Source: a virus (lineage: Duplodnaviria; Heunggongvirae; Uroviricota; Caudoviricetes). Taken from it: a stretch of DNA of 16,831 nt. Positions 1 to 16,176 of this stretch are shown here, piece after piece. Location: IMG/VR virus record IMGVR_UViG_3300029878_000153, one strand, 5' to 3'. The notes under the pieces were generated by a model. The model did not search any database. It was not told the DNA's origin and was given only the letters and a program-made list of their open reading frames with translations. Each line of letters opens with the position of its first letter. Position 1 is the stretch's first letter. Both the position numbers and the translations under genes were made by a program.

Positions 1-74
1 GTGGCGGCCTCAGTCCGGAACAATTTGAAAACAAGAACCTCGCTTAGGCCTGTGTCCATATTACGTGGGTAGGA

Positions 75-1547
75 TCACGGCGTCGATGCTGCGGCGTTGG
101 CAAAATAACTCAGTGGCCCCGGGTTTGCCGGAGAAAGAGTTACCGAACCGCTGGCAGGAATGCTGCCGCCAACTGGAACGTAATACGCTCTGCGCCCACC
201 CTGAGCAGCAGCTGTGCCAACGCTTGTGCGTGAGCTTTTGCCAAAGTTATAGGCCGTGTAGCCGGTTAGCTCCTGCAGGCGTGTCAGCATACGGGGGTTA
301 TCAACCATTGAATGGCCCCACCCGCAAATGATCGGCCTGGACATTACAGAGTGCTCAGTCAGATCATTGATATAGCAATAATACTGCCCACCCGGTGCGC
401 GATTAGTCTCCCTGTCCGATTGCCAGATAACCTTATCACCATCAACGCGTGGCAAGGTTTCATTACTGGATGTATTGGTTACACGAACCTGCTGACCTGT
501 ATCGCGATCAAACAGGAAAATCTGCTCATAGCCTTCTTTCTCTTCGCTAAATGCAATGTAATCAGGCTGACCTGAATTTGTCAGGTCCGATGATTTCAGC
601 GACTCGATAACAACCAGGTTTTCAGATGTGGATGCAGAAATGTATCCACTATCTGCATACTCATCAGGTGAGAGAAACGTTACTGACTCTGGAAGAGGTG
701 ATAATGCGTCAGTAACACCCTTTACCTCTGTAAAATCGCTTCCTTCAATTACCGCATCGTCAACAACAATTTTGCTAAAATAAATGGTGGTGCCTTTAAT
801 GCCAACAATAATTCTATTGTTTTCAGAAAAAGTTGCTGAGTCATACCCTGAATCCGAAAATTCAGATATATCGACAAAAGTCGAAGCCTGTAAAAAAGGA
901 ACGATTCCAAGAAGGCTCTGCCCGGAAATTAAAATGTCGTTTCCTGAAAGGATTTCAGCAGCGAATTGATCTGCGCTGATTTCCCCCGCTCTGATTTTTT
1001 GGAAAAACCACTCGACACCTTTCCTGGATAGTAGTATTTTTTTATTTTCATCTAGTATAGCCTCTTCCACCCCAGAATCTTTATATTCATCAGGAGGAAA
1101 GAACTCTGACGCCTGTGTTATATTTAACAAAGGAGAGTAGGGATCAATAGCATCATCTACATACTTCTTAGATGGCATTTTTCTACCGGTGGGCTCAAGA
1201 GTGCCACCATTGTTAATTACTTCAATAGCCAGCGCGCTATCGTCAGGGCTGCGGTAATACGTGGTAGAACCCACCGGGATATTCGCTATATCCGCCTGCG
1301 CCGCTGCCAGCGTCATGTATTGCCGGCTGAGAGGGATCAGGTTTTGGCGGGCTTCATCAATAACAGCGTCGGTAGCAGCTGCCATTTTTTTAGTAGCCCC
1401 AATTATCGTATCCCGGGCGTTACCAAAACGATCTATAAAAGTATCGCTTTCGCTGTTCAGGAAATCATCGTACGCCATGGCGTTATCATTCAGATCCTTC
1501 ATGCTATTTGAAGGTCTTGGATTGCCGGTATTATATCTTTTGTCCAT
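75..1547 (-). CDS. Hypothetical prophage cargo protein (about 490 aa) with three tandem ~70-aa internal repeats; function unknown
   Basis: Long open frame 75..1616. Start preferred at the ATG at 1545-1547 (MDKRY...), which has AGGA 6 nt upstream; in-frame alternative starts at 1565 and 1616. Repeats FPPDEYKDSGVEEAILDEN / ISEFSDSGYDSATFSENN / LSPDEYADSGYISASTSEN at ORF residues about 172-333. No signal peptide or TM segment apparent. Product not recognised. Confidence 0.55.
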   Translation of the reverse strand: MDKRYNTGNPRPSNSMKDLNDNAMAYDDFLNSESDTFIDRFGNARDTIIGATKKMAAATDAVIDEARQNLIPLSRQYMTLAAAQADIANIPVGSTTYYRSPDDSALAIEVINNGGTLEPTGRKMPSKKYVDDAIDPYSPLLNITQASEFFPPDEYKDSGVEEAILDENKKILLSRKGVEWFFQKIRAGEISADQFAAEILSGNDILISGQSLLGIVPFLQASTFVDISEFSDSGYDSATFSENNRIIVGIKGTTIYFSKIVVDDAVIEGSDFTEVKGVTDALSPLPESVTFLSPDEYADSGYISASTSENLVVIESLKSSDLTNSGQPDYIAFSEEKEGYEQIFLFDRDTGQQVRVTNTSSNETLPRVDGDKVIWQSDRETNRAPGGQYYCYINDLTEHSVMSRPIICGWGHSMVDNPRMLTRLQELTGYTAYNFGKSSRTSVGTAAAQGGRRAYYVPVGGSIPASGSVTLSPANPGPLSYFANAAASTP

Positions 1548-1587
1548 ACCTGTTCCTGTCTTCATCTTTTCAATGAAGCAATTAAGA

Positions 1588-1616
1588 TTGACGACCCGCC
1601 CCTTCAGGGCTAACAT
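1588..1616 (+). promoter_or_regulatory. Candidate sigma70 promoter for the HTH-acyltransferase operon (TTGACG -35, 17-nt spacer, TAACAT -10)
   Basis: TTGACG at 1588-1593 and TAACAT at 1611-1616 with a 17-nt spacer, read directly from the sequence; not verified. Confidence 0.3.
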
Positions 1617-1648
1617 CGCCTTACGTGTTTAAACGGTTAAGTAAGAGA

Positions 1649-1912
1649 ATGATTTTAATAAATAAATACACTCCTCCAACGCAGGAAGATTTAGCCAGAC
1701 TGAAATCCGCAATAAACTACTCCGGAAACCAAATGGCAGGGCTCGCAGGTGTAGCCAGCGATAGCCAATGGCGGAAATACACTGGCGGAGAGAGCCCCAG
1801 GGTAATGTCAAGACACATACTGTTTTATATTGCAGCTCAGCTTGTTCTGTCTGATGAGCAACTTAACAATGTAATAAATAAAATGCGCGATATTGGCGCG
1901 GAGATAAAATAA
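1649..1912 (+). CDS. Small Cro/YdaS-like helix-turn-helix DNA-binding protein (87 aa from ATG 1649; 95 aa if GTG 1625 is used)
   Basis: Segment GNQMAGLAGVASDSQWRKYTGG matches the helix-turn-helix pattern of Cro/YdaS-type regulators (G-x-Q-x-x-A-x-L-x-G-V-S...W). Stop TAA (1910-1912) overlaps the ATG of the downstream gene (TAATG). AT-rich. Confidence 0.5.
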   Translation: MILINKYTPPTQEDLARLKSAINYSGNQMAGLAGVASDSQWRKYTGGESPRVMSRHILFYIAAQLVLSDEQLNNVINKMRDIGAEIK

Positions 1913-3003
1913 TGCTTGGCCTAATAAGGTTTTTTTTGGCATCGTGCGTCATTGCTTTTCACTTAACGGCTCGCATACCTGCACTTGGCAACTTTGCAGT
2001 GAATTGCTTCTATGTTATCAGTGGTTTTTTAATAACATACATTTTGCATGAAACATACAAGTTCAACTTCTCTATGTTTTGGAAAAATAGAATACTGAGG
2101 TTATTCCCGGCATATATATTTTTTCTCGTCATGGGCTTTCTTATTATAAAATTAATTCCATCCGCAAAGGAATTCCACTCAAACTGGACAGGCAATTTCT
2201 TACCTGGAGATTTATTAGGAAACCTCTTAATCTTCCCCTGGGCTTTCCTTTCTGATAATGCTGTAGCAAATCCATTCGGTGCCTTTTCATCCATTTATCA
2301 CTTTGCTATTGATGGTAATAGATTCAGAATAGTCACATCATCATGGTCAGTGGGTGTTGAGATAACATGTTATTTTTTATTGTGGCTTTTCATAGCCCGA
2401 AATAAATTTACAGCCATTACGTCGATTCTGCTTTCACTGCTTTATCATGCTTACGTATATGTAGTACACCATTCTTTTGATATGGCGTATTTCCCATTCC
2501 TTGCTGCAACACTTCCTTTTAGCATGGGTTCTCTGGGTTATTTTGCCCATAGAAAGTTCAAAGCTATGTATCTTTCTCCACACAAAGCTTTTTTAATAAC
2601 ATTTATTTGCATCGGGATTTTTATTACCAATTGGTATTTATATACAATTAATGCATTAGGTCAGTACAACATAATACTTTACTACACCAATAATGTAATA
2701 GCATTGTTTACAACCCTGGTATTATTAAAAATAAAGACAAACATACATCTTGAGAAAATACTCAAGTGGTTTGGTGACCTGGCCTATCCAATTTTTCTTT
2801 GTCAATATTTTGGTGGATTTCTAGCATGGCTTGCTATTGGTGGTGAAAATCGTGGCTTATCCATCTTTTTATTAGGCTACCCAATATCAATTGCACTTGG
2901 GATCGTTTGTGTAATATTAATAGACAAGCCACTAATTAAAATTAGAGCAAAAATAAGGGCGGACGCTCAAAGCAAAAATAATCAGGAAAACTCTTCAAGG
3001 TAA
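1912..3003 (+). CDS. Acyltransferase family 3 (AT3) integral membrane acyltransferase, Oac/OafA-like; candidate O-antigen/LPS acetylase
   Basis: 363 aa, highly hydrophobic with multiple predicted TM segments. N-terminal R-x10-H motif (R6...H17 in MLGLIRFFLASCVIAFH) and FYVISGFLI motif typical of AT3 proteins. GGAGA Shine-Dalgarno 7 nt upstream of the ATG. Very AT-rich compared with neighbouring phage genes. Confidence 0.8.
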   Translation: MLGLIRFFLASCVIAFHLTARIPALGNFAVNCFYVISGFLITYILHETYKFNFSMFWKNRILRLFPAYIFFLVMGFLIIKLIPSAKEFHSNWTGNFLPGDLLGNLLIFPWAFLSDNAVANPFGAFSSIYHFAIDGNRFRIVTSSWSVGVEITCYFLLWLFIARNKFTAITSILLSLLYHAYVYVVHHSFDMAYFPFLAATLPFSMGSLGYFAHRKFKAMYLSPHKAFLITFICIGIFITNWYLYTINALGQYNIILYYTNNVIALFTTLVLLKIKTNIHLEKILKWFGDLAYPIFLCQYFGGFLAWLAIGGENRGLSIFLLGYPISIALGIVCVILIDKPLIKIRAKIRADAQSKNNQENSSR

Positions 3004-3767
3004 ACTAAACCATTCGCTCCTTTTCCTGATGAATAGTTACCATTCCCCCCGGCACCACCTGAGCCGGGGAAACCGCCATCATCGCCAGAACTACCGAAGT
3101 GGCCATTGCCACCCGTTGATGAAAATGCAGATCCTCCAGCCCCGCCAATAAAAGCATCAGAACCATAATACAGACCACCTTGAGATATTCCGCCAGTAAT
3201 ATTTAAAATGTTCCCGCCACTTCCGATACCTCCAGCAGGAACTGTAGCCCCGCCACCACTCCCTCCAGTAGCTGAGATTAAACTCCCGAACCTTGTATCA
3301 CCACCATTCCCACCTTTAGACGAGACACCAGCAGCAACAGCACTGCCACCAGTACCTATCGTCACAGATATAGTTTCGTTATCAGAAATATTAAATAACC
3401 CTTCCGAAAATCCACCAGCACAACCTCCAGATGCGCCCACACTAACTGGAGCATTCTGGCCACCTCCCCCCGCTCCCCAAACTTTCACCCGCACTCTTTT
3501 CGTCCCTTTAGTTGGAGTGTAAGTCCCTGACTTAGTAAAGGTGACAATATTAAGCAGGCGACCGCCACCAATCGCTTTAAGAACCTGTGAATCATCATCA
3601 GGATCAAGCTCAAGCCCCGCGCCCTCAACAACGTTTACCAGCTCACGCTGAAAGGTATTCATCATCTCAGCATTAATTATTGTCGGTGAAATACCATTAG
3701 CGACATTACCATTAGTGTATTCACCATTAGCATCAGCGGTGTCAGTTGTACTGCCAACTTTTCTCAT
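2982..3767 (-). CDS. Phage tail fiber protein, short (261 aa), with a glycine-rich C-terminal region
   Basis: Sits directly after the baseplate genes on the same strand with an AAGAAGG Shine-Dalgarno. N-terminal segment MMNTFQRELVNVVEGAGLELDPDDDSQVLKAI resembles the baseplate-attachment region of tail fibers; the C-terminal two thirds are GGxGG-rich low complexity. The last 7 codons overlap the 3' end of the convergent AT3 gene. Confidence 0.65.
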   Translation of the reverse strand: MRKVGSTTDTADANGEYTNGNVANGISPTIINAEMMNTFQRELVNVVEGAGLELDPDDDSQVLKAIGGGRLLNIVTFTKSGTYTPTKGTKRVRVKVWGAGGGGQNAPVSVGASGGCAGGFSEGLFNISDNETISVTIGTGGSAVAAGVSSKGGNGGDTRFGSLISATGGSGGGATVPAGGIGSGGNILNITGGISQGGLYYGSDAFIGGAGGSAFSSTGGNGHFGSSGDDGGFPGSGGAGGNGNYSSGKGANGLVYLEEFS

Positions 3768-3793
3768 ATAAACCTTCTTTTTAAATGTCTGAA

Positions 3794-4468
3794 TTAAACG
3801 TAACCAGAAGCGATATCAAATATTTTGGCAAACTCAGGCGTGACTTCGTAAACCCCCTCATCGTTAAAACCGAAATAGATATAGCCGAATTTGACCAGGG
3901 TGTATGAGGGGGCGAGGGCATTAATCCGGCATTCAAGCTGACGATTACCCCAGGAACGTAATGGATCGCCACAATAACTCAGACCTGCACGGGCATAAGT
4001 TATCGTTGTGTCTTCCGCCTCTACCAGCCAGACAAATGGCCAGTCATCCCCATTTAGCCCGTCACCACATACCGATAAGCCAGCACGCGCCTGCCGGTAT
4101 TCCTTAATCGAAATCGTATAACCCATTGCTGCGGCAATACTGATGAAATAGCTCTTTGACTGCCCGCCGGTACTGATGAGTTTCGATACAATGGCAGACT
4201 GACGCTTCGCAATCGTATCCACTTCGCCAATCGAGCAATCATCAGGTAAGCCGAGTGTTTTTTCCCACTCGGTGAGCATAATCGTCGCAGTTTTTGGAAA
4301 GGCACCGCGCAGCAATGCAAGTGCGTCGTTATCACTACGCTGGAAACTGGCCGCAATGGCCCGCAGCACAGCAGCCTGAACAGCTTTTGGATCCCGTGTC
4401 CACGCTCGGCCGGTGGGGATAAGCGCCTGCAGTGCCTTCTGATAATCGTCTGTTGAGAAAAGGCTCAT
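3794..4468 (-). CDS. Phage baseplate/tail protein, Mu gp48 / YmfQ-like (DUF2313-type)
   Basis: 224 aa; ATGA start/stop overlap with the upstream baseplate J gene; position and sequence character match the Mu-type wedge protein that precedes the fiber. Confidence 0.7.
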   Translation of the reverse strand: MSLFSTDDYQKALQALIPTGRAWTRDPKAVQAAVLRAIAASFQRSDNDALALLRGAFPKTATIMLTEWEKTLGLPDDCSIGEVDTIAKRQSAIVSKLISTGGQSKSYFISIAAAMGYTISIKEYRQARAGLSVCGDGLNGDDWPFVWLVEAEDTTITYARAGLSYCGDPLRSWGNRQLECRINALAPSYTLVKFGYIYFGFNDEGVYEVTPEFAKIFDIASGYV

Positions 4469-5613
4469 GTGTAGTTCACCTCGCCACGAACAGCCAGCTC
4501 CCCAACTCCCGGCTCAATATTCGCAGAAGGCGACACAAGGATATAACCTGAAGTACCGGCAACATCCCCTATCGCGCGGTTGAGATCTGAAAGGTAAATT
4601 TTCCCTGTGCCGAGCGGGTTAGCAGATTCAAACAATACCCCGTCAATCGCATCAGCAATGGCCGCAGTCGTTGCGCTGTCGGCATCAGATATCCCGCTTA
4701 TTTCAAAATCGATAACGCGTTCGATGGGAGAGCAGACATAGTTAAGGGAGGTAACCGGCGCAAGCGGATACATATAATCGGCAACTCTCCCCTGATCCCC
4801 GGTGGCTTTTACAGCCCCCCACTCTTCCAGTTGAGAGACACCGTCAGTTCCTGCAGGGAATCCATGATTGGTTTTATCATCGCCGTCGCACATGATGTAA
4901 ATCACCACGGTACCCGGCCCCATCCCCCGGCGCCGTATCCATGCCCTGGTGATCCCCGACACGGATAAAGCCCAGCTTTTATAATCAGTGTCACTCCCGC
5001 CCTGCGGGGGATTCTGATACGCCAGCAGACCACGTAATCGGAAATCCTCTTCACTTTCAATGTTGGCGCCGCCGGTGGCGGGCTCAATCAGCGTAACCGA
5101 GCTGTCTATGCCGGGGGCATTAGCATCCAGTGTAAGAATGGTGCCAGCATCGGCATTTCCGGAAGCGCCTCCTCCTGTCACATCGTCTGTGATATCCGGC
5201 AAAACCGCTGTTACAGCAACCGACGCACTGCCAGCAGTGTTTATCGTTATGGCATCATCGGTTGTGTACTGGTAACCATCATCACGGTTTAACACCGCCC
5301 CTTTTGACAGTGTTTTCCCCGGCGTTCCGGTAACGGTCGCCGCCGGAGAGCGTGCTGCCGTTGCGGCTTTTCGGTAAATCTGCTTTAGCGCCATCCATCC
5401 GGCAAGCCACTCATCGGTAGAGGTGAAAGGCGTGCTCTGACGGGCAATATAATCCAGGTAGGCGTAGTGCAGATGGGCCATGCCCGCATCCATATCAGCG
5501 AGCACCTTAAGGTTGCCAAACCGTAACAACGCGCCAACACTTTCAAGCTCTGCCTGCATAAACTGGCGATTCTCCTGCCGGAGCTCGCTCAGTGTTTTCC
5601 GCTTAAATGGCAT
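4465..5613 (-). CDS. Baseplate J-like protein (Mu gp47 / P2 gpJ family)
   Basis: 382 aa; order V - gp46 - J - gp48 - fiber conserved; translationally coupled to its neighbours. Confidence 0.8.
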   Translation of the reverse strand: MPFKRKTLSELRQENRQFMQAELESVGALLRFGNLKVLADMDAGMAHLHYAYLDYIARQSTPFTSTDEWLAGWMALKQIYRKAATAARSPAATVTGTPGKTLSKGAVLNRDDGYQYTTDDAITINTAGSASVAVTAVLPDITDDVTGGGASGNADAGTILTLDANAPGIDSSVTLIEPATGGANIESEEDFRLRGLLAYQNPPQGGSDTDYKSWALSVSGITRAWIRRRGMGPGTVVIYIMCDGDDKTNHGFPAGTDGVSQLEEWGAVKATGDQGRVADYMYPLAPVTSLNYVCSPIERVIDFEISGISDADSATTAAIADAIDGVLFESANPLGTGKIYLSDLNRAIGDVAGTSGYILVSPSANIEPGVGELAVRGEVNYT

Positions 5614-6052
5614 TATTCAGTTGCTCCCATAGCCAGAAGAATTTGAACTCCTGCCAGTCCCCCGTCGGCGGCAAATACCGGATGATGAGGTTCAGCCTGT
5701 TCGGGAAAACAATCTCTGACTGAGCCTCTATCGCTGCTGCAATACCATCCGACTTCATCCAGGCCAGAGCCTCTTCGGCGTAATCTTCAGCTCTCATCGC
5801 CACTTCGCGCGTCAGTTTTTCACGCCGCAGTAGCCACAGCCTTGAGCCAATATTCCGGTCGTTGTCCAGATCCCCCCACCAGCCGCGGCGGTCAGTTCCT
5901 TCATAATCATCATCAGCGCGCGCCAGTCCGTCAGTAAACAAACTGATAATAATGGCCGTGTGCATATCATTCTCAGATGTCAGTACGCCGTTACCGGTTT
6001 GCCAGTCAGCATGAATGGCATCCACATCCCAGAATGAGGAAATATCACTCAT
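5603..6052 (-). CDS. Baseplate wedge protein, Mu gp46 / T4 gp25-like (GPW/gp25 family)
   Basis: 149 aa; ATGA overlap with the upstream spike gene; characteristic size and position. Confidence 0.75.
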   Translation of the reverse strand: MSDISSFWDVDAIHADWQTGNGVLTSENDMHTAIIISLFTDGLARADDDYEGTDRRGWWGDLDNDRNIGSRLWLLRREKLTREVAMRAEDYAEEALAWMKSDGIAAAIEAQSEIVFPNRLNLIIRYLPPTGDWQEFKFFWLWEQLNNAI

Positions 6053-6630
6053 ACCTGACTCTCTGTTTTTTCGCTTGTGATCGTGCTATCGCCGGACTGA
6101 ACTTCTTTAACGTCATGGTCATGATCGTTGTGAGCATCCCGCAGCGCTTTGAGCGTTGAATTGTTCGTCTCGCAGTTATCGATGATGTCACCCGTCACCA
6201 GGAGTTTGGGGGTAACCAGCTTTACCTGTTCCGTTGCCGTCGCGGTGATGTTTCGGGCATTGTTGATCTCTACATCTTTGCCTTTCGCATCAATGAAAAT
6301 TCCCGCCTCAGTCAGATGAATATTCATCCCCTGCTGGTTATAGACCACCGTTTCGCCTGGCTTAAGCCCGGTATGCCGGTAGCTTTGATGGTTAGAGGCA
6401 ATGACGACGGGACTGGAGCGGTCCCCGCCGAGAAAGGCAATAAGCACATCCGATCCCGCCGGCAACCCCGATGAAAAACCAAAATCAGAGAGCCGTGGGG
6501 CGCTGGCCACTTCCAGCGGAGTCTGGTACTGGATTTCCTGCACAACCCCGCTATCTTTCTGCGTGGTAATACGGCCAATTCCCAGCATGCCGGCGATGCG
6601 CGTGGCCGATTTCTTTAAATTTTGATTCAT
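6049..6630 (-). CDS. Baseplate spike / assembly protein V (Mu gp45 / P2 gpV-like)
   Basis: 193 aa; C-terminal HNDHDHD His-rich apex motif as in gpV/gp5-type spikes; gene order. Confidence 0.8.
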   Translation of the reverse strand: MNQNLKKSATRIAGMLGIGRITTQKDSGVVQEIQYQTPLEVASAPRLSDFGFSSGLPAGSDVLIAFLGGDRSSPVVIASNHQSYRHTGLKPGETVVYNQQGMNIHLTEAGIFIDAKGKDVEINNARNITATATEQVKLVTPKLLVTGDIIDNCETNNSTLKALRDAHNDHDHDVKEVQSGDSTITSEKTESQV

Positions 6631-7340
6631 TGGTTTAGTCCGGGTATTTGCTGGTAGAAAGCATAAGGCTGGACAGCGAAAGCCTCCGGGGGCATCAGAT
6701 AAAGGCGCGCATGGGTGCCGTCACTGTCTCTGATATAAGTCACCTCTGCGATAAGCAATTCGGTGTCAGGCAGCTGCAGACTCGGGATGTTGACCGGGAT
6801 AAGCGTATTCGGCTCCCATAATCTCCCGGATTTATCGCGCCAGGAATCAATCGTCACCGTTAACTGACGGGAACGGCCGTATCGGCGGTTCATCTCCCAG
6901 TCAATCGCTCGCTGAGCCTGTTGTGAAGCCATCAGTGTACTTTCAACAATAATGATCCGTTTTCGGTAACGCATACTGGCTGCCTCAGGATCGCGGGCCG
7001 TAGCCAGCGTCACCGAATCATAAGCCGTATCTGGCGAGAATCCTGCAATCGGCGAAATGCTCATCGATACGCCGACGTAATCAGAAAAGCGGTCAGCCAT
7101 CGAACGGCGGTAATAAGCCTGTTCGATATTTACCCCTTCTGCGATACCACTGGCCGCGCGCTTTGTCCCCACCCGGGTCAGAAATAAGTTACCGTCAGGC
7201 TGATCGTAATAAAGCAATGCCGACCAGCGGGAGACACGATCAAGTATTTCCTGTGGCGATTCCCCCCAGTTCAGGGAAAATTGCGGGACTTTCACCAGAT
7301 CATCAACGTCTGTACTTACGCCAATGTTGTAATGGGATGC
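6627..7340 (-). pseudogene. Baseplate hub protein (P2 gpD / Mu gp44 family), 5'-truncated fragment
   Basis: The C-terminal part of the 7487..6627 ORF shows gpD-family character (QQAQRAIDWEMNRRYGRSRQLTVTIDSW...). The first ~50 codons of the ORF are low-complexity read-through into integrase DNA on the opposite strand. The gpD homology and the roughly 140 missing N-terminal residues rest on a recalled P2 gpD sequence, not an alignment. The upper coordinate is approximate. Confidence 0.6.
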
Positions 7341-7420
7341 GAGGCGGGAGGCTAGACGGGATGGAAAACCGCCGCCATCGCCTGAACTGGGAAATGAGCC
7401 GGGACAGGTGTTTGCGGCTT

Positions 7421-8194
7421 GGCAAGCCAGTGCCGGAGTATAAACCAAAGCTGGCAAGCAAAGGAACGAAGACGCGGCATCTGGCAATACTTCGCGCTAT
7501 TCTCAATATGGCTGTTGAATGGGGATGGCTTGACAGGCCTCCCAAAATATCAACACCACGCGTTAAGAATGGACGCATTAGATGGCTTACAGAAGAGGAA
7601 TCGAAGCGCCTGTTTGCAGAAATAGCTCCTCATTTCTTCCCTGTGGTCATGTTCGCAATAACTACAGGCCTTCGCCGTTCCAACGTTACAGACCTTGAGT
7701 GGTCACAGGTCGATCTGGATAAGAAAATGGCATGGATGCACCCTGATGAAACAAAAGCTGGCAATGCGATCGGAGTTCCTCTTAACGAAACCGCATGCCA
7801 GATATTAAGAAAACAGCAGGGTCTCCATAAGAGATGGGTGTTTGTCCACACCAAACCTGCCTACCGAAGCGACGGAACAAAAACAGCAGCGGTAAGGAAG
7901 ATGAGAACCGACAGCAACAAAGCATGGAAGGGAGCGTTAAAGCGGGCAGGCATTAGCAACTTCCGCTTCCATGACCTGAGGCATACCTGGGCAAGCTGGC
8001 TGGTTCAGTCCGGTGTCTCTCTTCTTGCACTTAAAGAGATGGGAGGATGGGAAACTCTCGAAATGGTTCAAAGATACGCCCACCTTTCAGCCGGGCATCT
8101 CACCGAGCACGCAAGCAAAATCGATGCGATTATAAGTCGCAATGGCACAAATACGGCACAAGAGGAGAACGTGGTTTACTTAAATGCTAGGTAA
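7421..8194 (+). pseudogene. Tyrosine recombinase (phage integrase), 5'-truncated; catalytic domain retained
   Basis: Catalytic signatures present: TGLRRS (Arg), HDLRHT (H-x-x-R), RYAHL (Tyr). Only about 85 residues precede the catalytic Arg, versus about 210 in lambda Int, so the N-terminal arm-binding domain is missing. The ORF-track extension back to 7163 is antisense read-through of the hub gene. Stop TAA at 8192-8194, 15 bp from the tRNA 3' end. Start coordinate approximate. Confidence 0.75.
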
Positions 8195-8225
8195 CTTATT
8201 GATTTAAATGGTGCCGATAATAGGA
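8195..8225. other. Predicted attL region (3' end of thrW plus the spacer to the integrase stop)
   Basis: Position only: the integrase ends 15 bp from the tRNA CCA end. The exact core cannot be defined without the attR copy, which is outside the window. Confidence 0.4.
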
Positions 8226-8284
8226 GTCGAACCTACGACCTTCGCATTACGAATGCGCTGCTCTACCAACTGAGCTATATCGGC
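8209..8284 (-). tRNA. thrW: tRNA-Thr (anticodon CGU)
   Basis: Reverse complement reads GCCGATATAGCTCAGTTGGTAGAGCAGCGCATTCGTAATGCGAAGGTCGTAGGTTCGACTCCTATTATCGGCACCA: 76 nt cloverleaf with 7-bp acceptor stem, GTTCGA T-loop, encoded CCA, anticodon CGT. Confidence 0.95.
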
Positions 8285-8335
8285 CCTGAAAGGACATGTT
8301 CACGAACGTGAATCACGGTGGACAAGGTTAAAACT

Positions 8336-8394
8336 AACCGGGCGATGCGTCAATGGCCTTGTGAATCAAATGGCTACTTTTGCATCACCCGGTT
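8336..8394 (-). terminator. Long inverted repeat immediately after the proA stop, followed by a U-run; candidate terminator/attenuator before thrW
   Basis: 12-bp arms AACCGGGCGATG (8336-8347) and CATCACCCGGTT (8383-8394), one G-U position, separated by about 35 nt; on the minus-strand transcript the stem is followed by AGUUUUAACC. The loop is unusually large, so confidence is low. Confidence 0.3.
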
Positions 8395-8398
8395 TTAT

Positions 8399-9652
8399 TT
8401 ACGCACGAATGGTGTAATCACCAATGCCGATCCACTTGTAAGTGGTCAGTGCTTCCAGCCCCATTGGGCCACGCGCGTGGAGTTTTTGTGTGCTTACCGC
8501 CACTTCCGCACCCAGACCAAACTGGCCGCCGTCGGTAAAACGCGTAGAGGCGTTAACGTAAACAGCGGACGAATCCACTTCGTTAACAAAACGCTGGGCG
8601 TTGCGCATATCGCGGGTCAGGATCGCATCGGAGTGTTGTGTGCCGTGTTCACGAATATGGGCGATGGCATCGTCAAGATCGCTGACGATTTTGACGTTCA
8701 AATCTAATGACAGAAACTCATCGTCATACTCTTCGGCTTTAACAGCAACCACCTTCGCAGGGCCTGCCTGCAACTGCGCCAGTGCAGCTGCATCTGCGTG
8801 TAATGTCACGCCGCTTTCCGCCATTTGTTTGCTTAATGCGGGCAGGAAGCTATCGGCGATGTTTTTATTCACCAGCAACGTTTCAACCGTATTACATGTG
8901 CTCGGACGCTGAGTTTTCGCGTTGACGATCACTTTTAATGCTTCAGCGATCTCTACACTTTCATCAACGTAAATATGGCATACGCCTATACCACCTGTGA
9001 TCACCGGGATTGTCGACTGTTCACGGCACAGTTTATGCAAACCAGCGCCACCACGCGGGATCAGCATGTCGATGTATTTATCCATACGCAGCATTTCACT
9101 GACCAGCGCACGGTCAGGATTATCAATCGCCTGCACGGCACCCGCCGGTAAGCCGCAGGATTTCAGGGCGTCCTGAATCACCGCCACCGTTGCAGCGTTA
9201 GTGCGACACGTTTCTTTGCCACCGCGCAGGATCACCGCATTACCGGTTTTCAGGCACAGCGAAGCGACATCAACCGTCACGTTCGGGCGCGCTTCATAAA
9301 TCACGCCAATAACCCCCAGCGGTACGCGACGACGCTCAAGACGCAGGCCGCTGTCCAGTACGCCGCCATCGATTACCTGCCCCACCGGATCGGCGAGGTT
9401 ACACACCTGGCGCACATCGTCGGCAATGCCTTTCAGCCGTGCGGGCGTCAGTGCCAGACGGTCAAGCATCGCTTCGCTAAGGCCGTTGGCACGCGCGTCA
9501 GCAACATCCTGCGCGTTAGCGTTGAGGATGATTTCGCTTTGTGCTTCCAGTTCATCGGCTATTTTTTCCAGTACGCGATTTTTTTCGCGGCTGGAGAGTT
9601 GCGCTAATTTATACGAGGCTTGCTTCGCGGCAATGCCCATTTGTTCCAGCAT
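8399..9652 (-). CDS. proA: Gamma-glutamyl phosphate reductase
   Basis: 417-aa ORF recognised as ProA ([20 protein letters not shown]...), aldehyde dehydrogenase-like; conserved synteny downstream of proB. Confidence 0.96.
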
Positions 9653-9663
9653 CAGCCTGCTCC

Positions 9664-10767
9664 TTAACGGGTAATCATGTCATCACGGTGAACGGCAACC
9701 GGGCCGTATTCATATCCCAGTATTGCATCAATTTCTTGCGAGTGGTGTCCGGCAATACGGCGTAATGCATCGCTGTTGTAACGACTGACACCGTGGGCGA
9801 TATCGCGGCCTTCGAGGTTGCAAATGCGGATGACTTCACCACGCGAGAAGTTGCCAGTCACGCTTTTAATGCCTTTCGGCAACAGGGAGCTGCCGCGTTC
9901 CAGAATGGCGGCAGTTGCCCCTTCATCTACCGTGATTTCCCCCGCAGGCGGCGCACCGAAAATCCAGCGTTTACGGTTTTCAAGCGGAGTCGCCTGGGCA
10001 TGGAACAGCGTACCGACGGAAATGCCTTCCATCACATCACCAATAACGCCCGGCTTGCTGCCCGCGGCAATAATGGTGTCGATACCCGCACGGCAAGCCA
10101 CGTCAGCGGCCTGCAATTTGGTACTCATGCCGCCAGTTCCGAGGCCTGAAACGCTGTCACCGGCAATCGCGCGCAGTGCGTCATCAATGCCGTAAACATC
10201 TTTAATCAGTTCTGCCTGCGGATTGCTGCGCGGATCAGCGGTATACAAACCTTTTTGATCGGTCAGCAGCAACAGTTTATCGGCACCCGCCAGAATCGCC
10301 GCCAGCGCAGAAAGGTTATCGTTATCGCCGACCTTAATCTCTGCCGTAGCGACAGCATCGTTCTCATTGATTACCGGAACGATATTGTTATCGAGCAACG
10401 CACGCAGGGTGTCGCGGGCGTTCAGGAAGCGTTCTCGGTCTTCCATATCAGCACGGGTCAGCAGCATTTGCCCGACGTGAATGCCATAAATCGAAAACAG
10501 CTGTTCCCACAGTTGAATCAGTCGACTCTGCCCTACCGCCGCCAGCAGTTGTTTCGAGGCGATAGTCGCTGGCAGTTCCGGGTAACCCAGGTGCTCACGT
10601 CCGGCGGCGATCGCGCCCGACGTCACAATAACAATCCGATGCCCGGCGGCATGTAACTGCGCGCACTGGCGAACAAGTTCAACGATATGGGCACGGTTCA
10701 GACGGCGCGATCCGCCTGTTAGCACACTGGTGCCGAGTTTTACCACCAGCGTCTGGCTGTCACTCAT
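9664..10767 (-). CDS. proB: Glutamate 5-kinase
   Basis: Recognised as ProB beginning [16 protein letters not shown] (ATG at 10765-10767); the ORF-track start at 10854 is an upstream in-frame extension. 11-nt gap to proA. Confidence 0.96.
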
Positions 10768-10955
10768 GATTCTCTGCCATTCAATTTTAGGAAAAATGAT
10801 ATCAAACGAACGTTTTAGCAGGACTGTCGTCGGTTGCCAACCATCTGCGAGCAAAGCATGGCGTTTTGTTGCGCGGGATCAGCAAGCCTAGCGGCAGTTG
10901 TTTACGCTTTTATTACAGATTTACTAAATTACCACATTTTAAGAATATTATTAAT

Positions 10956-10973
10956 CTGTAATATATCTTTAAC
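10956..10973 (+). promoter_or_regulatory. Pho box (PhoB binding site) in the phoE promoter
   Basis: CTGTAATATATCTTTAAC matches the 7-4-7 pho box consensus CTGTCAT-A(A/T)A(T/A)-CTGTCA(C/T); it lies about 80 bp upstream of the phoE start. phoE is a known Pho regulon member. Confidence 0.6.
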
Positions 10974-11054
10974 AATCTCAGGTTAAAAACTTTCCTGTTT
11001 TCAACGGGACTCTCCCGCTGAATATTCGCGCGTTAATTAAAATCAGGAATGAAA

Positions 11055-12110
11055 ATGAAAAAGAGCACTCTGGCATTAGTGGTGATGGGCATTGTGGCAT
11101 CTGCATCCGTACAGGCCGCAGAAATATATAACAAAGACGGTAATAAACTGGATGTCTATGGCAAAGTTAAAGCCATGCATTATATGAGTGATAACGACAG
11201 TAAAGATGGCGACCAGAGTTATATCCGTTTTGGTTTTAAAGGCGAAACACAAATTAACGATCAACTGACTGGCTATGGTCGTTGGGAAGCGGAGTTTGCC
11301 GGTAATAAAGCAGAGAGTGATACTGCACAGCAAAAAACGCGTCTCGCTTTTGCCGGGTTGAAATATAAAGATTTGGGTTCTTTCGATTATGGTCGTAACC
11401 TGGGCGCGTTGTATGACGTGGAAGCCTGGACCGATATGTTCCCGGAATTTGGTGGCGACTCCTCGGCGCAGACCGACAACTTTATGACCAAACGCGCCAG
11501 CGGTCTGGCGACGTATCGGAACACCGACTTCTTCGGCGTTATCGATGGCCTGAACTTAACCCTGCAATATCAAGGGAAAAACGAAAACCGCGACGTTAAA
11601 AAGCAAAACGGCGATGGCTTCGGCACGTCATTGACATATGACTTTGGCGGCAGCGATTTCGCCATTAGTGGGGCCTATACCAACTCAGATCGCACCAACG
11701 AGCAGAACCTGCAAAGCCGTGGCACAGGCAAGCGTGCAGAAGCATGGGCTACAGGTCTGAAATACGATGCCAATAATATTTATCTGGCAACTTTTTATTC
11801 TGAAACACGCAAAATGACGCCAATAACTGGCGGCTTTGCCAATAAGACACAGAACTTTGAAGCGGTCGCTCAATACCAGTTTGACTTTGGTCTGCGTCCA
11901 TCGCTGGGTTATGTCTTATCGAAAGGGAAAGATATTGAAGGTATCGGTGATGAAGATCTGGTCAATTATATCGATGTCGGGGCTACGTATTATTTCAACA
12001 AAAATATGTCAGCGTTTGTTGATTATAAAATCAACCAACTGGATAGCGATAACAAATTGAATATTAATAATGATGATATTGTCGCGGTTGGCATGACCTA
12101 TCAGTTTTAA
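11055..12110 (+). CDS. phoE: Outer membrane phosphoporin PhoE
   Basis: Recognised PhoE sequence with signal peptide [21 protein letters not shown] and C-terminal aromatic residue (...TYQF); AGGA 6 nt upstream of the ATG at 11055. The ORF-track start at 11049 is 2 codons upstream. Confidence 0.95.
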
Positions 12111-12118
12111 TGGATATT

Positions 12119-12139
12119 GCCGGATGTGATACATCCGGC
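12119..12139. terminator. Perfect 9-bp stem hairpin between convergent phoE and crl; candidate bidirectional terminator or REP-like element
   Basis: GCCGGATGT-GAT-ACATCCGGC; no strong U-tract on either side, so terminator function is uncertain. Confidence 0.4.
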
Positions 12140-12148
12140 ACATTTCAC

Positions 12149-12607
<459 letters not shown>

Positions 12608-13852
12608 TTAACACAAACGTTTTTCGATCCAGTCTGTGATTTCCTGAAGACCTTTGTCAAAATTCCGATACACCGGGTTAAATGGGATCTCTAATAATTT
12701 ACCGTCAGCAGATGATGAGGTGATTAAGCGTGAGTCCTCTTCCGGGCTGAACGGATCGTTCTTCCAGTAGCCTGATAACATTGGCGTTGGGCAGCGACGT
12801 CCCAGCAATCCTTGCACTTTTAATGAATAGCGATTCAGCTCCACGCGCAACGCTTCATCGGAAGCATCATGCATCCCCAAACGACTGGCCAGAACGTCAA
12901 GATACATTTCCGGCACCTGTTGCTGGCACTTAAAATCACTCAACAGGGTATGAACTACCGGACCAAGACAGGCAACCGCTTTCAGACGCGGCGATTCAAG
13001 ATATGCCAGACGCACGGCAACGTTAGCGCCGAAACGGAAACCAAAGGCCGCGACGCGAGTGTGATCCACCCACGGTACGTTAGGCAGCGCCTTTAAGACG
13101 TGCTGATGCAACAGGCTGGAGTCCTGGGTGAGCTTCCATTTTGAAGAAAAGCCCACCGATGGCATATCAATAGTCAGCATCGCAATGCCGCGCGGCGCAA
13201 AATAACGTTCATACAGGCTGTAATAGTCCGTCTGCATCGCATCCAGACCACCACACATTAATACTGTCGGGAACGGGCCATCGCCTTTCGGCATATGCAA
13301 AAAGCCGGTGATGGGCGCACCGCCGGGTACGGTAAACTCCATCTGCCGCATCGTGCCCGGCAGACGCTGGGCGGCCTCTTCATAGGCGCGGTTTGATAAA
13401 GCCTGCGCTTGCTCGGCCAGGTCATCTCCTTTCAGATGAGGATAGGCGGCAATGTTGTACAACGTAGCCGCATGCAGCCAGTGTCGACCACTGAGTTGCG
13501 GATCTTCTTCCGCACAGGCTTTTTGTTGCCACACCATCGCCTGGGTGGCCCACTCATAAATCCAGTTGCCACCACGGTAGCCAATCACAGTATCGTATAA
13601 ATCATCGTCGGTACGTTCAGCATCGCTCATCACAATACGTGCCTGGACGTCGAGGATTTCACGTGGGTCAATACCGCGCCAGATCCACATCAGACGGTTA
13701 ATCATGCGATACCAGTGAGGGATGGTTTTACCATCAAGAGCCGACTGCACAGGCGGTTGTGCGCCGTGATTAAAGCGGCGGACTAGCGTCGAGGTTTCAG
13801 GATGTTTAAAGCGGGGTTTGAACAGGGTTTCGCTCAGGTTTGCCTGTGTCAT
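12608..13852 (-). CDS. frsA: Fermentation/respiration switch protein FrsA (alpha/beta hydrolase fold esterase)
   Basis: 414-aa ORF recognised as FrsA ([27 protein letters not shown]...); conserved position between gpt and crl. Confidence 0.95.
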
Positions 13853-13902
13853 GGATGCAGCCTCCAGAATACTTACTGGAAACTATTGTAACCTGCCTGA
13901 AG

Positions 13903-13935
13903 TTAAAAAGAACAACGCCCGGCAGTGCCAGGCGT
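13903..13935 (-). terminator. Rho-independent terminator downstream of gpt
   Basis: On the minus-strand transcript: stem AACGCCUGGCA / UGCCGGGCGUU with loop CUG, followed by GUUCUUUUUAAC; begins 9 nt after the gpt stop. Confidence 0.55.
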
Positions 13936-13943
13936 TGAAAAGA

Positions 13944-14402
13944 TTAGCGACCGGAGATTGGCGGGACGAATACGACGCCCATATCCCACGGCTGTTCGAT
14001 CCAGGTATCTTGCGGGATATCAACAACATAGTCATCAACCAGCGGACGACCAGCCGGTTTTGCGAAGATGGTGACAAAGTGCGCTTTTGGATACATTTCA
14101 CGAATCGCAACCGCAGTACCACCGGTATCCACCAGGTCATCAATAACGATGAAGCCTTCGCCATCGCCTTCTGCGCGTTTCAGCACTTTAAGCTCGCGCT
14201 GGTTGTCGTGATCGTAGCTGGAAATACAAACGGTATCGACATGACGAATACCCAGTTCACGCGCCAGTAACGCACCCGGTACCAGACCGCCACGGCTTAC
14301 GGCAATAATGCCTTTCCATTGTTCAGAAGGCATCAGTCGGCTTGCGAGTTTACGTGCATGGATCTGCAACATGTCCCAGGTGACGATGTATTTTTCGCTC
14401 AT
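13944..14402 (-). CDS. gpt: Xanthine-guanine phosphoribosyltransferase
   Basis: 152-aa ORF recognised as Gpt ([23 protein letters not shown]...), with PRPP-binding motif [11 protein letters not shown]. Confidence 0.96.
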
Positions 14403-14662
14403 GTGAAGTGTCCCAGCCTGTTTATCTACGGCTTAAAAAGTGTTCGAGGGGAAAATAGGTTGCGCGAGATTATAGAGATCTGGCGCACTAAAAACCAGTA
14501 TTTCACATGAGTCCGCGTCTTTTTACGCACTGCCTCTCCCTGACGCGGGATAAAGTGGTATTCTCAAACATATCTCGCAAGCCTGTCTTGTGTTGACAAC
14601 ATTTTCTGCTAACCCTGTGACCTGCAATACTGTTTTGCGGGTGATCGACAAGGAGACTTAAC

Positions 14663-16120
14663 GTGTCTGAACTGTCTCAATTATCTCCACAGCCGCTGTG
14701 GGATATTTTTGCCAAAATCTGTTCTATTCCTCACCCGTCCTATCATGAAGAGCAACTCGCTGAATACATTGTTGGTTGGGCAAAAGAGAAAGGTTTCCAT
14801 GTCGAACGCGATCAGGTAGGTAATATCCTGATTCGTAAACCTGCCACCGCAGGTATGGAAAATCGTAAACCGGTCGTCTTGCAGGCCCACCTCGATATGG
14901 TGCCGCAGAAAAATAACGACACCGTGCATGACTTCACGAAAGATCCTATCCAGCCTTATATTGATGGTGAATGGGTTAAAGCGCGCGGCACCACGCTGGG
15001 TGCAGATAACGGCATTGGTATGGCGTCTGCGCTGGCGGTTCTGGCTGACGAAAACGTGGTTCACGGCCCGCTGGAAGTGCTGCTGACCATGACCGAAGAA
15101 GCCGGTATGGACGGTGCGTTCGGCTTACAGAGCAACTGGTTGCAGGCTGATATTCTGATTAACACCGACTCCGAAGAAGAAGGTGAAATCTACATGGGTT
15201 GCGCGGGGGGTATCGACTTCACCTCCAACCTGCATTTGGATCGTGAAGCGGTTCCAGCTGGCTTTGAAACCTTCAAGTTAACCTTAAAAGGTCTAAAAGG
15301 CGGTCACTCCGGCGGTGAAATCCACGTTGGCCTGGGTAATGCCAACAAACTGCTGGTGCGCTTCCTGGCGGGTCATGCGGAAGAGCTGGACCTGCGCCTT
15401 ATCGATTTCAACGGTGGCACACTGCGTAACGCCATCCCGCGTGAAGCCTTTGCGACCATTGCTGTCGCAGCTGATAAAGTCGACGCCCTGAAATCTCTGG
15501 TGAATACCTATCAGGAGATCCTGAAAAACGAGCTGGCAGAAAAAGAGAAAAATCTGGCCTTGTTGCTGGACTCTGTAGCGAACGATAAAGCTGCCCTGAT
15601 TGCGAAATCTCGCGATACCTTTATTCGTCTGCTGAACGCCACCCCGAACGGTGTGATCCGCAACTCCGACGTGGCAAAAGGTGTGGTCGAAACCTCCCTG
15701 AACGTCGGTGTGGTGACCATGACTGACAATAACGTAGAAATTCACTGTCTGATCCGTTCTCTGATCGACAGCGGTAAAGACTACGTGGTGAGCATGCTGG
15801 ATTCGCTGGGTAAACTGGCTGGCGCGAAAACCGAAGCGAAAGGCGCATATCCTGGCTGGCAGCCGGACGCTAATTCTCCGGTGATGCATCTGGTACGTGA
15901 AACCTATCAGCGCCTGTTCAACAAGACGCCGAACATCCAGATTATCCACGCGGGCCTGGAATGTGGTCTGTTCAAAAAACCGTATCCGGAAATGGACATG
16001 GTTTCTATCGGGCCAACAATCACCGGTCCACACTCTCCGGATGAGCAAGTTCACATCGAAAGCGTTGGTCATTACTGGACACTGCTGACTGAACTGCTGA
16101 AAGAAATTCCGGCGAAGTAA
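14663..16120 (+). CDS. pepD: Cytosol non-specific dipeptidase (aminoacyl-histidine dipeptidase, M20 family)
   Basis: 485-aa ORF recognised as PepD (MSELSQLSPQPLWDIFAKICSIPHPSYHEE...); GTG start at 14663 with AGGAG 8 nt upstream. Confidence 0.96.
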   Translation: MSELSQLSPQPLWDIFAKICSIPHPSYHEEQLAEYIVGWAKEKGFHVERDQVGNILIRKPATAGMENRKPVVLQAHLDMVPQKNNDTVHDFTKDPIQPYIDGEWVKARGTTLGADNGIGMASALAVLADENVVHGPLEVLLTMTEEAGMDGAFGLQSNWLQADILINTDSEEEGEIYMGCAGGIDFTSNLHLDREAVPAGFETFKLTLKGLKGGHSGGEIHVGLGNANKLLVRFLAGHAEELDLRLIDFNGGTLRNAIPREAFATIAVAADKVDALKSLVNTYQEILKNELAEKEKNLALLLDSVANDKAALIAKSRDTFIRLLNATPNGVIRNSDVAKGVVETSLNVGVVTMTDNNVEIHCLIRSLIDSGKDYVVSMLDSLGKLAGAKTEAKGAYPGWQPDANSPVMHLVRETYQRLFNKTPNIQIIHAGLECGLFKKPYPEMDMVSIGPTITGPHSPDEQVHIESVGHYWTLLTELLKEIPAK

Positions 16121-16132
16121 TTATTTGATTTG

Positions 16133-16170: not shown

Positions 16171-16176
16171 CCTTCA

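Follow-up and report, generated by a model that had tools for sequence, protein, structure and literature searches.

A viral contig (IMG/VR record IMGVR_UViG_3300029878_000153) in which a phage integrase gene runs up to the bacterial tRNA gene thrW raises the question of which phage was integrated at this site and how it was reduced to its present state. The window, i.e., the entire analyzed stretch of 16,831 nucleotides, contains a prophage remnant with the integrase gene (int) abutting the tRNA 3' end, as recognized in the initial annotation, an arrangement that is also found in the Shigella converting phages that integrate at thrW (PMC3306764, PMC3636060). The initial annotation further derived the remnant from the lineage of the Shigella phages SfII, SfV and SfX, with an acetylase-type rather than a gtrABC-type conversion cassette, an interpretation that stands only in part. 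The features of the locus (Table 1) are best compatible, with a probability of about 85%, with an origin from a phage resembling Serratia phage vB_SspM_BZS1 (BZS1, MT843275) that carried an SfX-type integrase, integrated into thrW and underwent a single internal deletion.

Table 1. Features of the prophage remnant and of the adjoining chromosome, with positions in the window
Feature	Position	Strand	Supporting evidence
IS3 element end, cuts off the tail-spike gene	1-76		matches the IS3-like region annotated in E. coli S1-INA-02-B
Tail spike/fibre gene ("TolB family" beta-propeller type), first 490 of 703 codons	75-1547	-	99.6% identity to the 703-aa protein of E. coli 22F46
Small ORF of 59 aa, immediately preceding the acyltransferase gene	1733-1912	+	gene call in three independent assemblies
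AT3-family membrane acyltransferase, 363 aa	1912-3003	+	PF01757, E=1.2e-15; PHROG 3333 "O-acetyltransferase", E=1.2e-21
Glycine-rich tail-fibre protein, 261 aa	2982-3767	-	Pfam Gly_rich_2; PHROG tail-fibre families
Mu gp48-like baseplate wedge protein (YmfQ family)	3794-4468	-	Pfam PF10076, E=5e-31; identity to BZS1 83%, to SfV 34%
Baseplate J / Mu gp47-like protein	4465-5613	-	Pfam PF04865, E=3e-53
Mu gp46-like baseplate protein	5603-6052	-	Pfam PF07409, E=2.6e-32
Mu gp45-like baseplate spike/assembly protein	6049-6630	-	Pfam PF06890; 60-68% identity to BZS1/phiNP
Mu gp44 (P)-like baseplate hub gene without the first ~120 codons	6627-7352	-	Pfam Gp44-like_2nd, GpP_4th
Deletion junction, dinucleotide TA common to both parental sequences	7353-7354		alignment with intact gp44 and int
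Tyrosine integrase gene of P22/SfX type, 3' fragment	7353-8194	+	protein 99.3% identical to SfX Int (280 aa compared); PF00589, E=9e-35
Phage-derived spacer of 14 bp separating int stop and att core	8195-8208		same in SfV, SfII and HK phages
att core, 3' part of thrW, 46 bp	8209-8254		phage identity stops at 8254
thrW, intact tRNA-Thr gene, anticodon CGT (CGU)	8209-8284	-	ARAGORN
proA, first chromosomal gene past the tRNA, 417 aa	8399-9652	-	ORF

The anatomy of the integration site is clear. The int reading frame ends with a TAA codon at 8192-8194, and the CCA end of thrW lies at position 8209 because the tRNA gene, the only one that ARAGORN identifies in the 16,831-nt window, is on the minus strand; the close spacing reported in the initial annotation is thus confirmed, with a distance of 14 bp instead of 15 bp. 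The crossover between phage and chromosome is located within the 46-bp core, given that homology to phages ends inside the tRNA gene and that other copies of the core, those without thrW behind it, diverge directly past position 8254. The core is identical to the attP of SfV, SfII, SfX and the HK-type coliphages, and the 64 bp from 8191 to 8254 (int stop, 14-bp spacer and core) match the int-attP junction of SfV and SfII at 100%. The 46-mer occurs once in the window, with a chance expectation of 0, and the arrangement of int, spacer and tRNA is evidently not accidental. No second core and no other repeats were found in the window; the matching draft contigs, like the window itself, all terminate in IS3, as became apparent when reading past this element was attempted via the assemblies that encode the truncated spike. 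In the related strain E. coli 22F46, a second att core is located 13.8 kb from thrW.

The chromosomal side begins with proA directly past the tRNA gene, as initially annotated, followed by proB, phoE, crl, frsA, gpt and pepD. The entire flank (8300-16831) is 100% identical to the sequences of E. coli strains in which proA, proB, phoE, frsA, pepD and other genes are annotated. This identity shows that the host is E. coli rather than Shigella.

The integrase gene is represented by 281 codons, corresponding to codons ~105-384 of the intact gene. Homology to phage int genes begins at about 7347-7353, and the break falls at nt 313/314 of the 1155-nt intact sequence. A complete module would consist of an int gene of about 384-387 codons, including the N-terminal domain, and an adjacent xis; here, the arm-binding N-terminal region of Int and xis are deleted, and antisense gp44 sequence lies upstream. 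The coordinates in the initial annotation gave no hint that the integrase is a 3' fragment only. Over the range 7347-8254, the DNA is ~98% identical to SfX, HK75, HK542, mEpX2, mEp213 and mEp043, with the same 46-bp core and 14-bp spacer, and the SfX integrase module is also present in HK446. The HK and mEp coliphages that share the SfX integrase have HK97-like non-contractile tails, and none of these phages, SfX included, is known to possess a Mu-like baseplate. In E. coli EC12, an intact SfX-type int resides next to thrW-proA, likewise with a 14-bp spacer. In all copies of the truncated gene, a frame of 277 codons is open; selection on the truncated Int was considered, but the variation seems to be inherited from intact alleles and makes no case for it.

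The junction between int and gp44 can be read at nucleotide resolution. The intact gp44 of E. coli HS runs across the corresponding point as ...GGGAGGCTATATC..., and the intact int of EC12 and SfX as ...GGAGGCGGTAGACGGG..., with the dinucleotide TA in common. Homology with intact copies of gp44 ends at 7352-7354, and what remains of gp44 corresponds, with 99.6% identity, to residues ~121-361 of the E. coli HS protein, which has 361 aa when intact. A single deletion links codon ~105 of int to codon ~121 of gp44.

The tail genes point to a source distinct from the one suggested by the integrase. Their Pfam order, Gp44-like, Gp45, GP46, Baseplate_J and Gp48, is the Mu gp44-48 synteny of the SfV group, but the encoded proteins are only 29-41% identical to those of SfV, SfII, SfI and SfIV (the structural proteins of SfI and SfV are reported to be identical), compared with 54-83% identity to BZS1 and Citrobacter phage phiNP (OR565852). 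For example, the gp47-like protein is 65% identical to its counterpart in BZS1, 62% to that in phiNP and 33% to those in the SfV group. By these comparisons, the baseplate genes group with BZS1 and phiNP, a lambda-head/Mu-tail lineage different from that of SfV and SfII. The gene order of BZS1 is also the one observed here: gp44-48, a fibre with a conserved N-terminus, an AT3 gene in opposite orientation, a large spike, an attP of 46 bp that derives from a tRNA gene, and int (PMC7556043). The first 66 amino acids of the glycine-rich fibre are 77% identical to BZS1 p23, and the P22-family integrase of BZS1 is 56% identical to the one in the window. The two differ in that BZS1 integrates into tRNA-Lys(CTT) rather than thrW and in that about 80% of the genome is missing from the remnant. 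In addition, neither the AT3 protein of BZS1 (p24) nor the distal portion of its spike shows detectable similarity to the counterparts in the window.

Even closer relatives of the tail module are found in E. coli chromosomes. The genes for gp44-48, the glycine-rich fibre and AT3 are ~99% identical in the prophages of E. coli HS (serU-mtfA), 22F46 and 23CRST046 (both yciI-kch), which have other integrases and att sites and which, like the remnant, are mostly products of deletion; the closest copies of the tail module (99.9%) are located at yciI-kch, with a different integrase. The presence of these copies at serU and yciI-kch, together with other integrases, implies that the tail/AT3 module is not tied to thrW phages. 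The spikes of these prophages differ in their distal domains (SGNH "sialate O-acetylesterase" as opposed to a TolB-like propeller). The E. coli relatives of the BZS1 type with the ~99% identical tail module encode a lambda-type head and cos packaging functions, e.g., the apparently complete prophage of E. coli 23CRST046, where the ~99% identity extends to the DNA of the tail module and the lambda-type head genes (terminase, portal, protease, decoration and capsid) are present along with those for sheath and tube; in the remnant, the head, sheath and tube genes are deleted. A chromosomal inversion between the yciI-kch prophage and thrW was tried as an explanation of the locus and rejected since a simple inversion gives the opposite gene orientation.

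The acyltransferase gene is the candidate conversion gene of the remnant. The Acyl_transf_3 domain (PF01757) spans residues 4-336 of the protein, and the gene, which is flanked by the fibre and spike genes and does not adjoin the att site, is oriented opposite to the tail genes. Its GC content amounts to 33-35%, while the baseplate genes have about 53%; copies with 99-100% identity occupy the same slot in the serU and yciI-kch prophages. The gene resembles oacD, the AT3 gene of SfII named in the initial annotation, in family, strand and location downstream of a fibre gene (PMC8973906). The details are different: the protein shows no detectable similarity to SfII OacD (BLASTP E=2.3) and has no match with E<=1e-5 in Sf6 or any Shigella phage, and a spike gene lies beyond it, whereas the conversion genes of SfV, SfII, SfI and SfIV are placed between the tail fibres and attP (PMC3636060, PMC8973906). 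A search for characterized close homologs found none, and the homologs bear only generic names; a promoter/terminator scan around the gene gave no signal above chance, and the 59-aa ORF upstream has no Pfam match. The gene is accessory (a moron), and its product is a candidate O-acetyltransferase of surface polysaccharide; judging by family and position, AT3 most likely serves in lysogenic conversion. The gtrABC genes of the SfV group were not detected in the visible part of the prophage: no ORF of at least 100 aa between IS3 and thrW matches the Gtr families, a cutoff that only marginally covers the ~120-aa GtrA, and the att-distal end, where gtr would be expected, lies beyond IS3.

The spike gene has lost its 3' end to IS3, leaving 490 amino acids; matches to the intact gene begin at base 77. 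In one assembly of the locus (L005), a fragment of an rve_2 transposase abuts the IS3 boundary point at which the draft contigs stop. The spike protein matches PHROG tail-fibre families and contains weak TolB/beta-propeller repeats, and it shares its N-terminal ~130 aa, at 87% identity, with the spike encoded by the E. coli HS prophage, a "sialate O-acetylesterase". Neither the fibre nor the spike matches any structural protein of the SfV group.

Under the preferred reading, the parent would have been a temperate phage that combined a lambda-like head with a contractile tail of the Mu type, from the lineage of BZS1, phiNP and several E. coli prophages, that carried a P22/SfX-type integrase module and an attP consisting of the last 46 bp of thrW. 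When it entered thrW of a commensal-type E. coli, the tRNA 3' end would have been regenerated at a distance of 14 bp from the 3' end of int, the late genes being directed away from it. A single deletion of an estimated 30-35 kb, or roughly four fifths of the genome, would have fused int nt 313/314 to gp44 codon ~121 at the common TA. Lost in this event would have been xis, the N-terminus of int and the genes for immunity, replication, lysis, head and tail shaft. What is left is the truncated gp44 through gp48, the glycine-rich fibre gene, the opposite-strand AT3 gene and the spike gene that was later cut by IS3, a remnant no longer able to excise or to form particles. The AT3 protein might modify the surface polysaccharide recognized by the phage's own spike and so block superinfection. 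An internal deletion in one prophage would yield exactly the gene order and orientation seen in the window. Because no genome with both the tail module and an intact SfX-type int was found, either among complete E. coli genomes or among IMG/VR contigs (the metagenome, GTDB and IMG/VR loci contain only remnant copies), we infer this single parent rather than observe it.

The same lack of an intact phage joining the two modules would be accounted for by a composite origin, in which a proximal prophage with the SfX-type int and a distal BZS1-like prophage were integrated in tandem at thrW and a larger deletion fused int to the distal gp44. SfI and SfX are documented examples of tandem integration at thrW (PMC3306764), and other thrW islands of E. 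coli are layered, with a second att core and additional remnants. Such a scenario, however, requires a deletion about twice as long. It further presupposes that a BZS1-like phage integrated at thrW and hence already possessed a thrW-type integrase, and the simpler single-phage model explains the order and orientation of the genes equally well. The composite origin thus appears unlikely.

Descent from the serotype-converting Shigella lineage of SfII, SfV and SfX, with an oacD-type acetylase replacing gtrABC, would explain the shared att site and the int-attP junction identical to that of SfV and SfII, the near-identity of Int to SfX Int, the Mu-type baseplate order of SfV and, by analogy with SfII (PMC8973906), the AT3 gene on the opposite strand downstream of the fibres. 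The SfV group also resembles the presumed parent in the lambdoid genome. However, SfII, SfV and SfX do not constitute one lineage, given that SfX is a short-tailed pac phage (PMC3636060) and that the Int proteins of SfV and SfII are only 54-55% identical to the SfX-type Int in the window. In the protein comparison, Int sides with SfX but the tail proteins side with BZS1 and phiNP. The AT3 protein unrelated to OacD, the E. coli flank and the presence of the same tail/AT3 module at serU and yciI-kch likewise stand against this origin, which is quite improbable and, at the level of the lineage, largely refuted.

An assembly artefact or chimera at the int-gp44 junction, for which the absence of this junction from all 5,426 complete E. 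coli genomes could be cited, has a negligible probability and is refuted by the identical junction in five other assemblies (L005, L006, L007, L035 and L104; two NCBI drafts, a Logan assembly and a contig each from IMG/VR and an ENA metagenome), with 99.98-100% identity over 7.6-11.5 kb. Genomes with this junction include GCA_009767345.1 and GCA_013352005.1.

The locus thrW is a classic hot spot of prophage integration where degraded prophages are routine, and the remnant is an ordinary leftover of a temperate thrW phage, in itself of little importance. Its one unusual aspect is the recurrence of the int breakpoint. The site between ...GGAGGCGG and TAGACGGGATGG... of the SfX-type int (nt 313/314, window position 7353) is joined, at the same nucleotide and in different genomes, to five unrelated partners, namely gp44 (the present case), another gp45-like gene, a head scaffold-like gene, an unidentified region and rusA. 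Of the 143 E. coli genomes with the SfX-type int, 120 have the gene unbroken across this point. The rusA partner runs in the same direction as int, an orientation that would not result if a prophage with the standard lambdoid layout simply underwent an internal deletion. The native sequence of the partner is known in two cases, and TA is found at the crossover in both. It is possible, if on balance doubtful, that nt 313/314 is a site of sequence- or structure-specific breakage or recombination rather than a product of random decay; the candidates are a pseudo-site for a recombinase, a local hairpin cleaved at its 5' stem-loop boundary, and a sequence that mimics the left end of IS2. Short palindromes at the five int junctions give a weak signal (per-junction p of 0.04-1.0) and for that reason were dropped as evidence. 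The SfV-type int, used as a control for the spread of breakpoints, is uninformative because its partial matches are allele mosaics. If the recurrence is mechanistic, it would represent a defined route by which thrW prophages are repeatedly crippled, with a bearing on how prophages become fixed.

The locus also shows that the integrase/att module and the virion module assort independently, with an SfX integrase on a BZS1-like myovirus and the tail/AT3 module at three att sites; a match of the integrase or the att site, therefore, is no proof of phage lineage. Across this prophage family in E. coli, AT3 and the adjoining fibre and spike genes are the part most often retained, which makes AT3 a reasonable candidate for an uncharacterized determinant of surface acetylation, with a possible role in serotype or phage resistance.

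The only tRNA gene that ARAGORN finds in the window is tRNA-Thr (anticodon CGT), with its CCA end at 8209, and the integrase frame closes just short of it. The initial annotation described the 3' end of the integrase gene as abutting thrW at a distance of 15 bp, with proA beyond the tRNA; this arrangement is present, except that the spacer is 14 bp, as it is also in E. coli EC12, where an intact copy of the same integrase gene adjoins thrW-proA. A megablast search with positions 1-8300 against 50,697 phage records shows ~98% identity from 7347 to 8254 to SfX, HK75, HK542, HK446, mEpX2, mEp213 and mEp043 (several of the matching records of this type carry the annotation "attP; similar to thrW"), and, at the int-attP junction, 100% identity of 8191-8254 to SfV and SfII. 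The match to phage DNA reaches 46 bp into the tRNA and stops at 8254, and copies with phage DNA instead of thrW beyond the core diverge exactly there; thus, 8209-8254 is the att core, and the 3' part of the tRNA is phage-derived. SfI, SfII, SfIV, SfV and SfX integrate into tRNA-thrW beside proA through the same core as P22, with int at one prophage end and the O-antigen genes at the other (PMC3306764, PMC3636060). The initial annotation was right about the integration module and the overall architecture, the att layout being that of thrW-integrating phages and the 64-bp junction identical to that of SfV and SfII. The chromosomal flank, 8300-16831, matches several E. coli chromosomes at 100% identity (ST540 strains, 22F46 and others), which makes the host E. 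coli rather than Shigella.

Features of the thrW remnant, from the chromosome leftwards; remnant genes were assigned from Pfam and PHROGs
Feature	Position	Strand	Remark
proA	8399-9652	-	beyond thrW; then proB, phoE, crl, frsA, gpt, pepD
tRNA-Thr (thrW)	8209-8284	-
att core	8209-8254		46 bp
Spacer	8195-8208		14 bp
Integrase stop	8192-8194		TAA
int' (3' integrase fragment)			first gene from thrW
Open frame across junction	7163-8194		343 codons
int'::gp44' junction	7353-7354		TA
gp44', gp45, gp46, gp47, gp48			gp44', Mu P-like hub; gp47, Baseplate J
Glycine-rich fibre
AT3 acyltransferase	1912-3003	+	opposite strand
Spike gene	75-1547		TolB-like propeller; 490 of 703 codons left
IS3 end	1-76		cuts spike gene after codon 490 of 703

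The int' protein is 99.3% identical to SfX Int and 54-55% identical to the integrases of SfV and SfII. The proposed derivation from the SfII/SfV/SfX lineage does not hold for the virion genes: identity of the baseplate proteins to those of SfV and SfII is only 29-41%, compared with 54-83% for gp44-48 against Serratia phage vB_SspM_BZS1 and Citrobacter phage phiNP. In a tblastn search of all phage records, the best matches of Baseplate J are BZS1 (65%) and phiNP (62%), and the identity to SfI, SfII, SfIV and SfV is ~33%. The remnant shares its organisation throughout with BZS1, which has a lambda-type head with cos and Mu genes 38-48 (PMC7556043), including a common fibre N-terminus and an opposite-strand AT3 gene followed by a large spike; BZS1 also has a 46-bp attP of tRNA origin, but the tRNA is tRNA-Lys, and its P22-family integrase is 56% identical to that of the remnant. 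Among the thrW phages, SfX is a short-tailed pac phage, whereas SfV, SfII and SfI have contractile tails (PMC3636060). Modules of gp44-48, fibre and AT3 that are ~99% identical to that of the remnant reside at serU-mtfA in E. coli HS and between yciI and kch in 22F46, 23CRST046 and others, where they are accompanied by other integrases. Given the combination of an SfX-type integrase with a BZS1-like tail, and of the same tail module with other integrases, the integrase/att and virion modules assort independently. An apparently complete prophage in 23CRST046 encodes terminase, gpW, portal, S49 protease, decoration and capsid proteins along with sheath, tube, tape measure and gp43-48. The description that best fits these comparisons is a BZS1/phiNP-like myovirus that once carried an SfX-type thrW integrase. 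As a degraded prophage in a tRNA gene well known as an integration hot spot, the remnant is a newly described but ordinary representative of known kinds.

Homology to intact int begins at ~7347-7353, and the antisense strand of the baseplate gene lies upstream. When the window is aligned with intact int from EC12 and SfX and with intact gp44 from E. coli HS, the junction falls at a TA common to both parents (tail side, GGGAGGC-TA-TATC; integrase side, GGAGGCGG-TA-GACGGG). The breakpoint falls at nt 313/314 of the 1155-nt intact gene; int' lacks ~104 codons, xis is also missing, and the gp44-like gene has lost ~120 codons from its start. The junction recurs at 99.98-100% identity in two NCBI drafts, one Logan assembly, one ENA metagenome contig and one IMG/VR contig, which rejects an assembly error; none of the 5,426 complete E. 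coli genomes searched contains it. The remnant-bearing draft, metagenome and viral contigs (L005-L007, L035, L104) end at the IS3 point or within ~100 bp of it. The frame that crosses the junction is antisense gp44 sequence on one side and int on the other; gene callers report a 277-aa int' from the ATG at 7361 and an overlapping opposite-strand gp44' of 273-286 aa, both of which are artefacts of the fusion.

Compared with the SfV map, the genes have exactly the order and orientation expected of one lambdoid prophage after an internal deletion, with int reading towards att and the late genes reading away from it. We infer rather than observe this single-phage parent because no intact phage with both the SfX-type int and the tail module was found among complete E. 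coli genomes and IMG/VR contigs. The junction could possibly have originated in a tandem lysogen, tandem insertions at thrW having been described (PMC3306764). If the segment between the yciI-kch prophage and thrW had been inverted, the genes would point the other way, and this origin is rejected; a deletion between them would remove ~1 Mb.

The breakpoint itself is recurrent. We surveyed every sequence with the 28-mer that adjoins the junction on its right, in complete E. coli genomes, 25 metagenome contigs, 3 GTDB contigs and 65 IMG/VR contigs. The integrase gene is intact across this region in 120 of the 143 complete E. coli genomes with an SfX-type int, and 89 intact copies (28 + 61) are present in the collections tallied. 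All non-IS truncations occur at one nucleotide, immediately before TAGACGGG (context also written TAGACGGGATGG; window 7353; same breakpoint at L015:29484, L016:6006, L018:3231, L021:512 and L058:11600 of the comparison loci), with five unrelated left partners: gp44 in the window remnant; a different gp45-like gene in E. coli 22F46, also at thrW; a head scaffold-like gene in L058, at thrW; a region without a gene name in L021, at thrW on a contig whose chromosome is only ~93% identical; and rusA in FDAARGOS_1077, FORC_031 and others. Because rusA is co-oriented with int, rusA::int is not a simple deletion. No non-IS breakpoint was detected elsewhere in SfX-type int among the sequences surveyed, the other disruptions being IS2 and IS66 insertions only. 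The native partner sequence is known for rusA and gp44, and both have TA at the crossover. In single-stranded form, intact int can form an imperfect 10/11 hairpin (ATGGAGGCGGT / ACCGCCGCCAT, 14-nt loop, z = -3.1), and the breakpoint is its 5' stem-loop boundary; in addition, TAGACGGG matches the IS2 left terminus at 7 of 8 bases. Candidate causes are a recombinase pseudo-site, hairpin cleavage, IS2-end mimicry or another cause. The 277-codon frame is open in all truncated copies, and the variation among them looks inherited from intact alleles.

The AT3 protein (363 aa) consists of the AT3 domain (PF01757, E=1.2e-15) and matches PHROG 3333, "O-acetyltransferase" (E=1.2e-21); the GC content of its gene is 33-35% versus ~53% in the baseplate genes. 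It occupies the slot of BZS1 p24, to which its sole similarity is short and weak (~50 residues, 31% identity, E=0.018), and a position analogous to that of oacD in SfII (PMC8973906). The suggested oacD-type cassette finds no support, the protein having no detectable similarity to SfII OacD. The best phage match is a Vibrio phage (28% identity), and homologues with generic names only, 40-65% identical, are found in Pantoea, Lonsdalea, Sodalis, Serratia and Klebsiella. Among AT3-bearing IMG/VR and E. coli copies of the tail module, AT3 is 98.6-100% identical in all but one (L124, with a 49% variant; L123 lacks AT3), regardless of att site and distal spike domain. Judging by family and position, this protein is most likely a lysogenic-conversion O-acetyltransferase. 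The authors of the BZS1 study proposed an acetylase/deacetylase pairing with the spike (PMC7556043). The same AT3 and adjoining fibre and spike genes are kept at thrW, serU and yciI-kch (L001, L002, L003, L004, L014, L112-L122), and several strains retain almost only AT3 and the spike; retention at three att sites may reflect selection for the acyltransferase. The spike is modular, with the N-terminal ~130 aa conserved at 87% (window 75-1547; L001:18326-20320; L012:20926-23307) and a variable distal domain, a TolB-like propeller in the window and 22F46 versus an SGNH "sialate O-acetylesterase" in E. coli HS, while AT3 is constant; in BZS1, a putative deacetylase fibre occupies the position of the spike.

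The thrW island of 22F46 (L015:16434-30414), whose 8.5-kb thrW-flanking chromosome is identical to that of the window, is layered: from thrW, it comprises int' broken at the recurrent nucleotide, gp45-like and gp46-like fragments, lambda J', lom, stf, tfa and an Avs2 defence gene, followed by a second att core and, with it, 69 bp from a different int allele (89.6% identical). In FORC_031, a rusA'::int'-core unit adjoins the same Avs2. IS2 inserted independently in the SfX-type int of SfX (L010, record U82084) and of E. coli ETEC1703 (L017:4689-5917), in the latter 35 bp upstream of the recurrent breakpoint, where it generated a 5-bp duplication, CTCTG.
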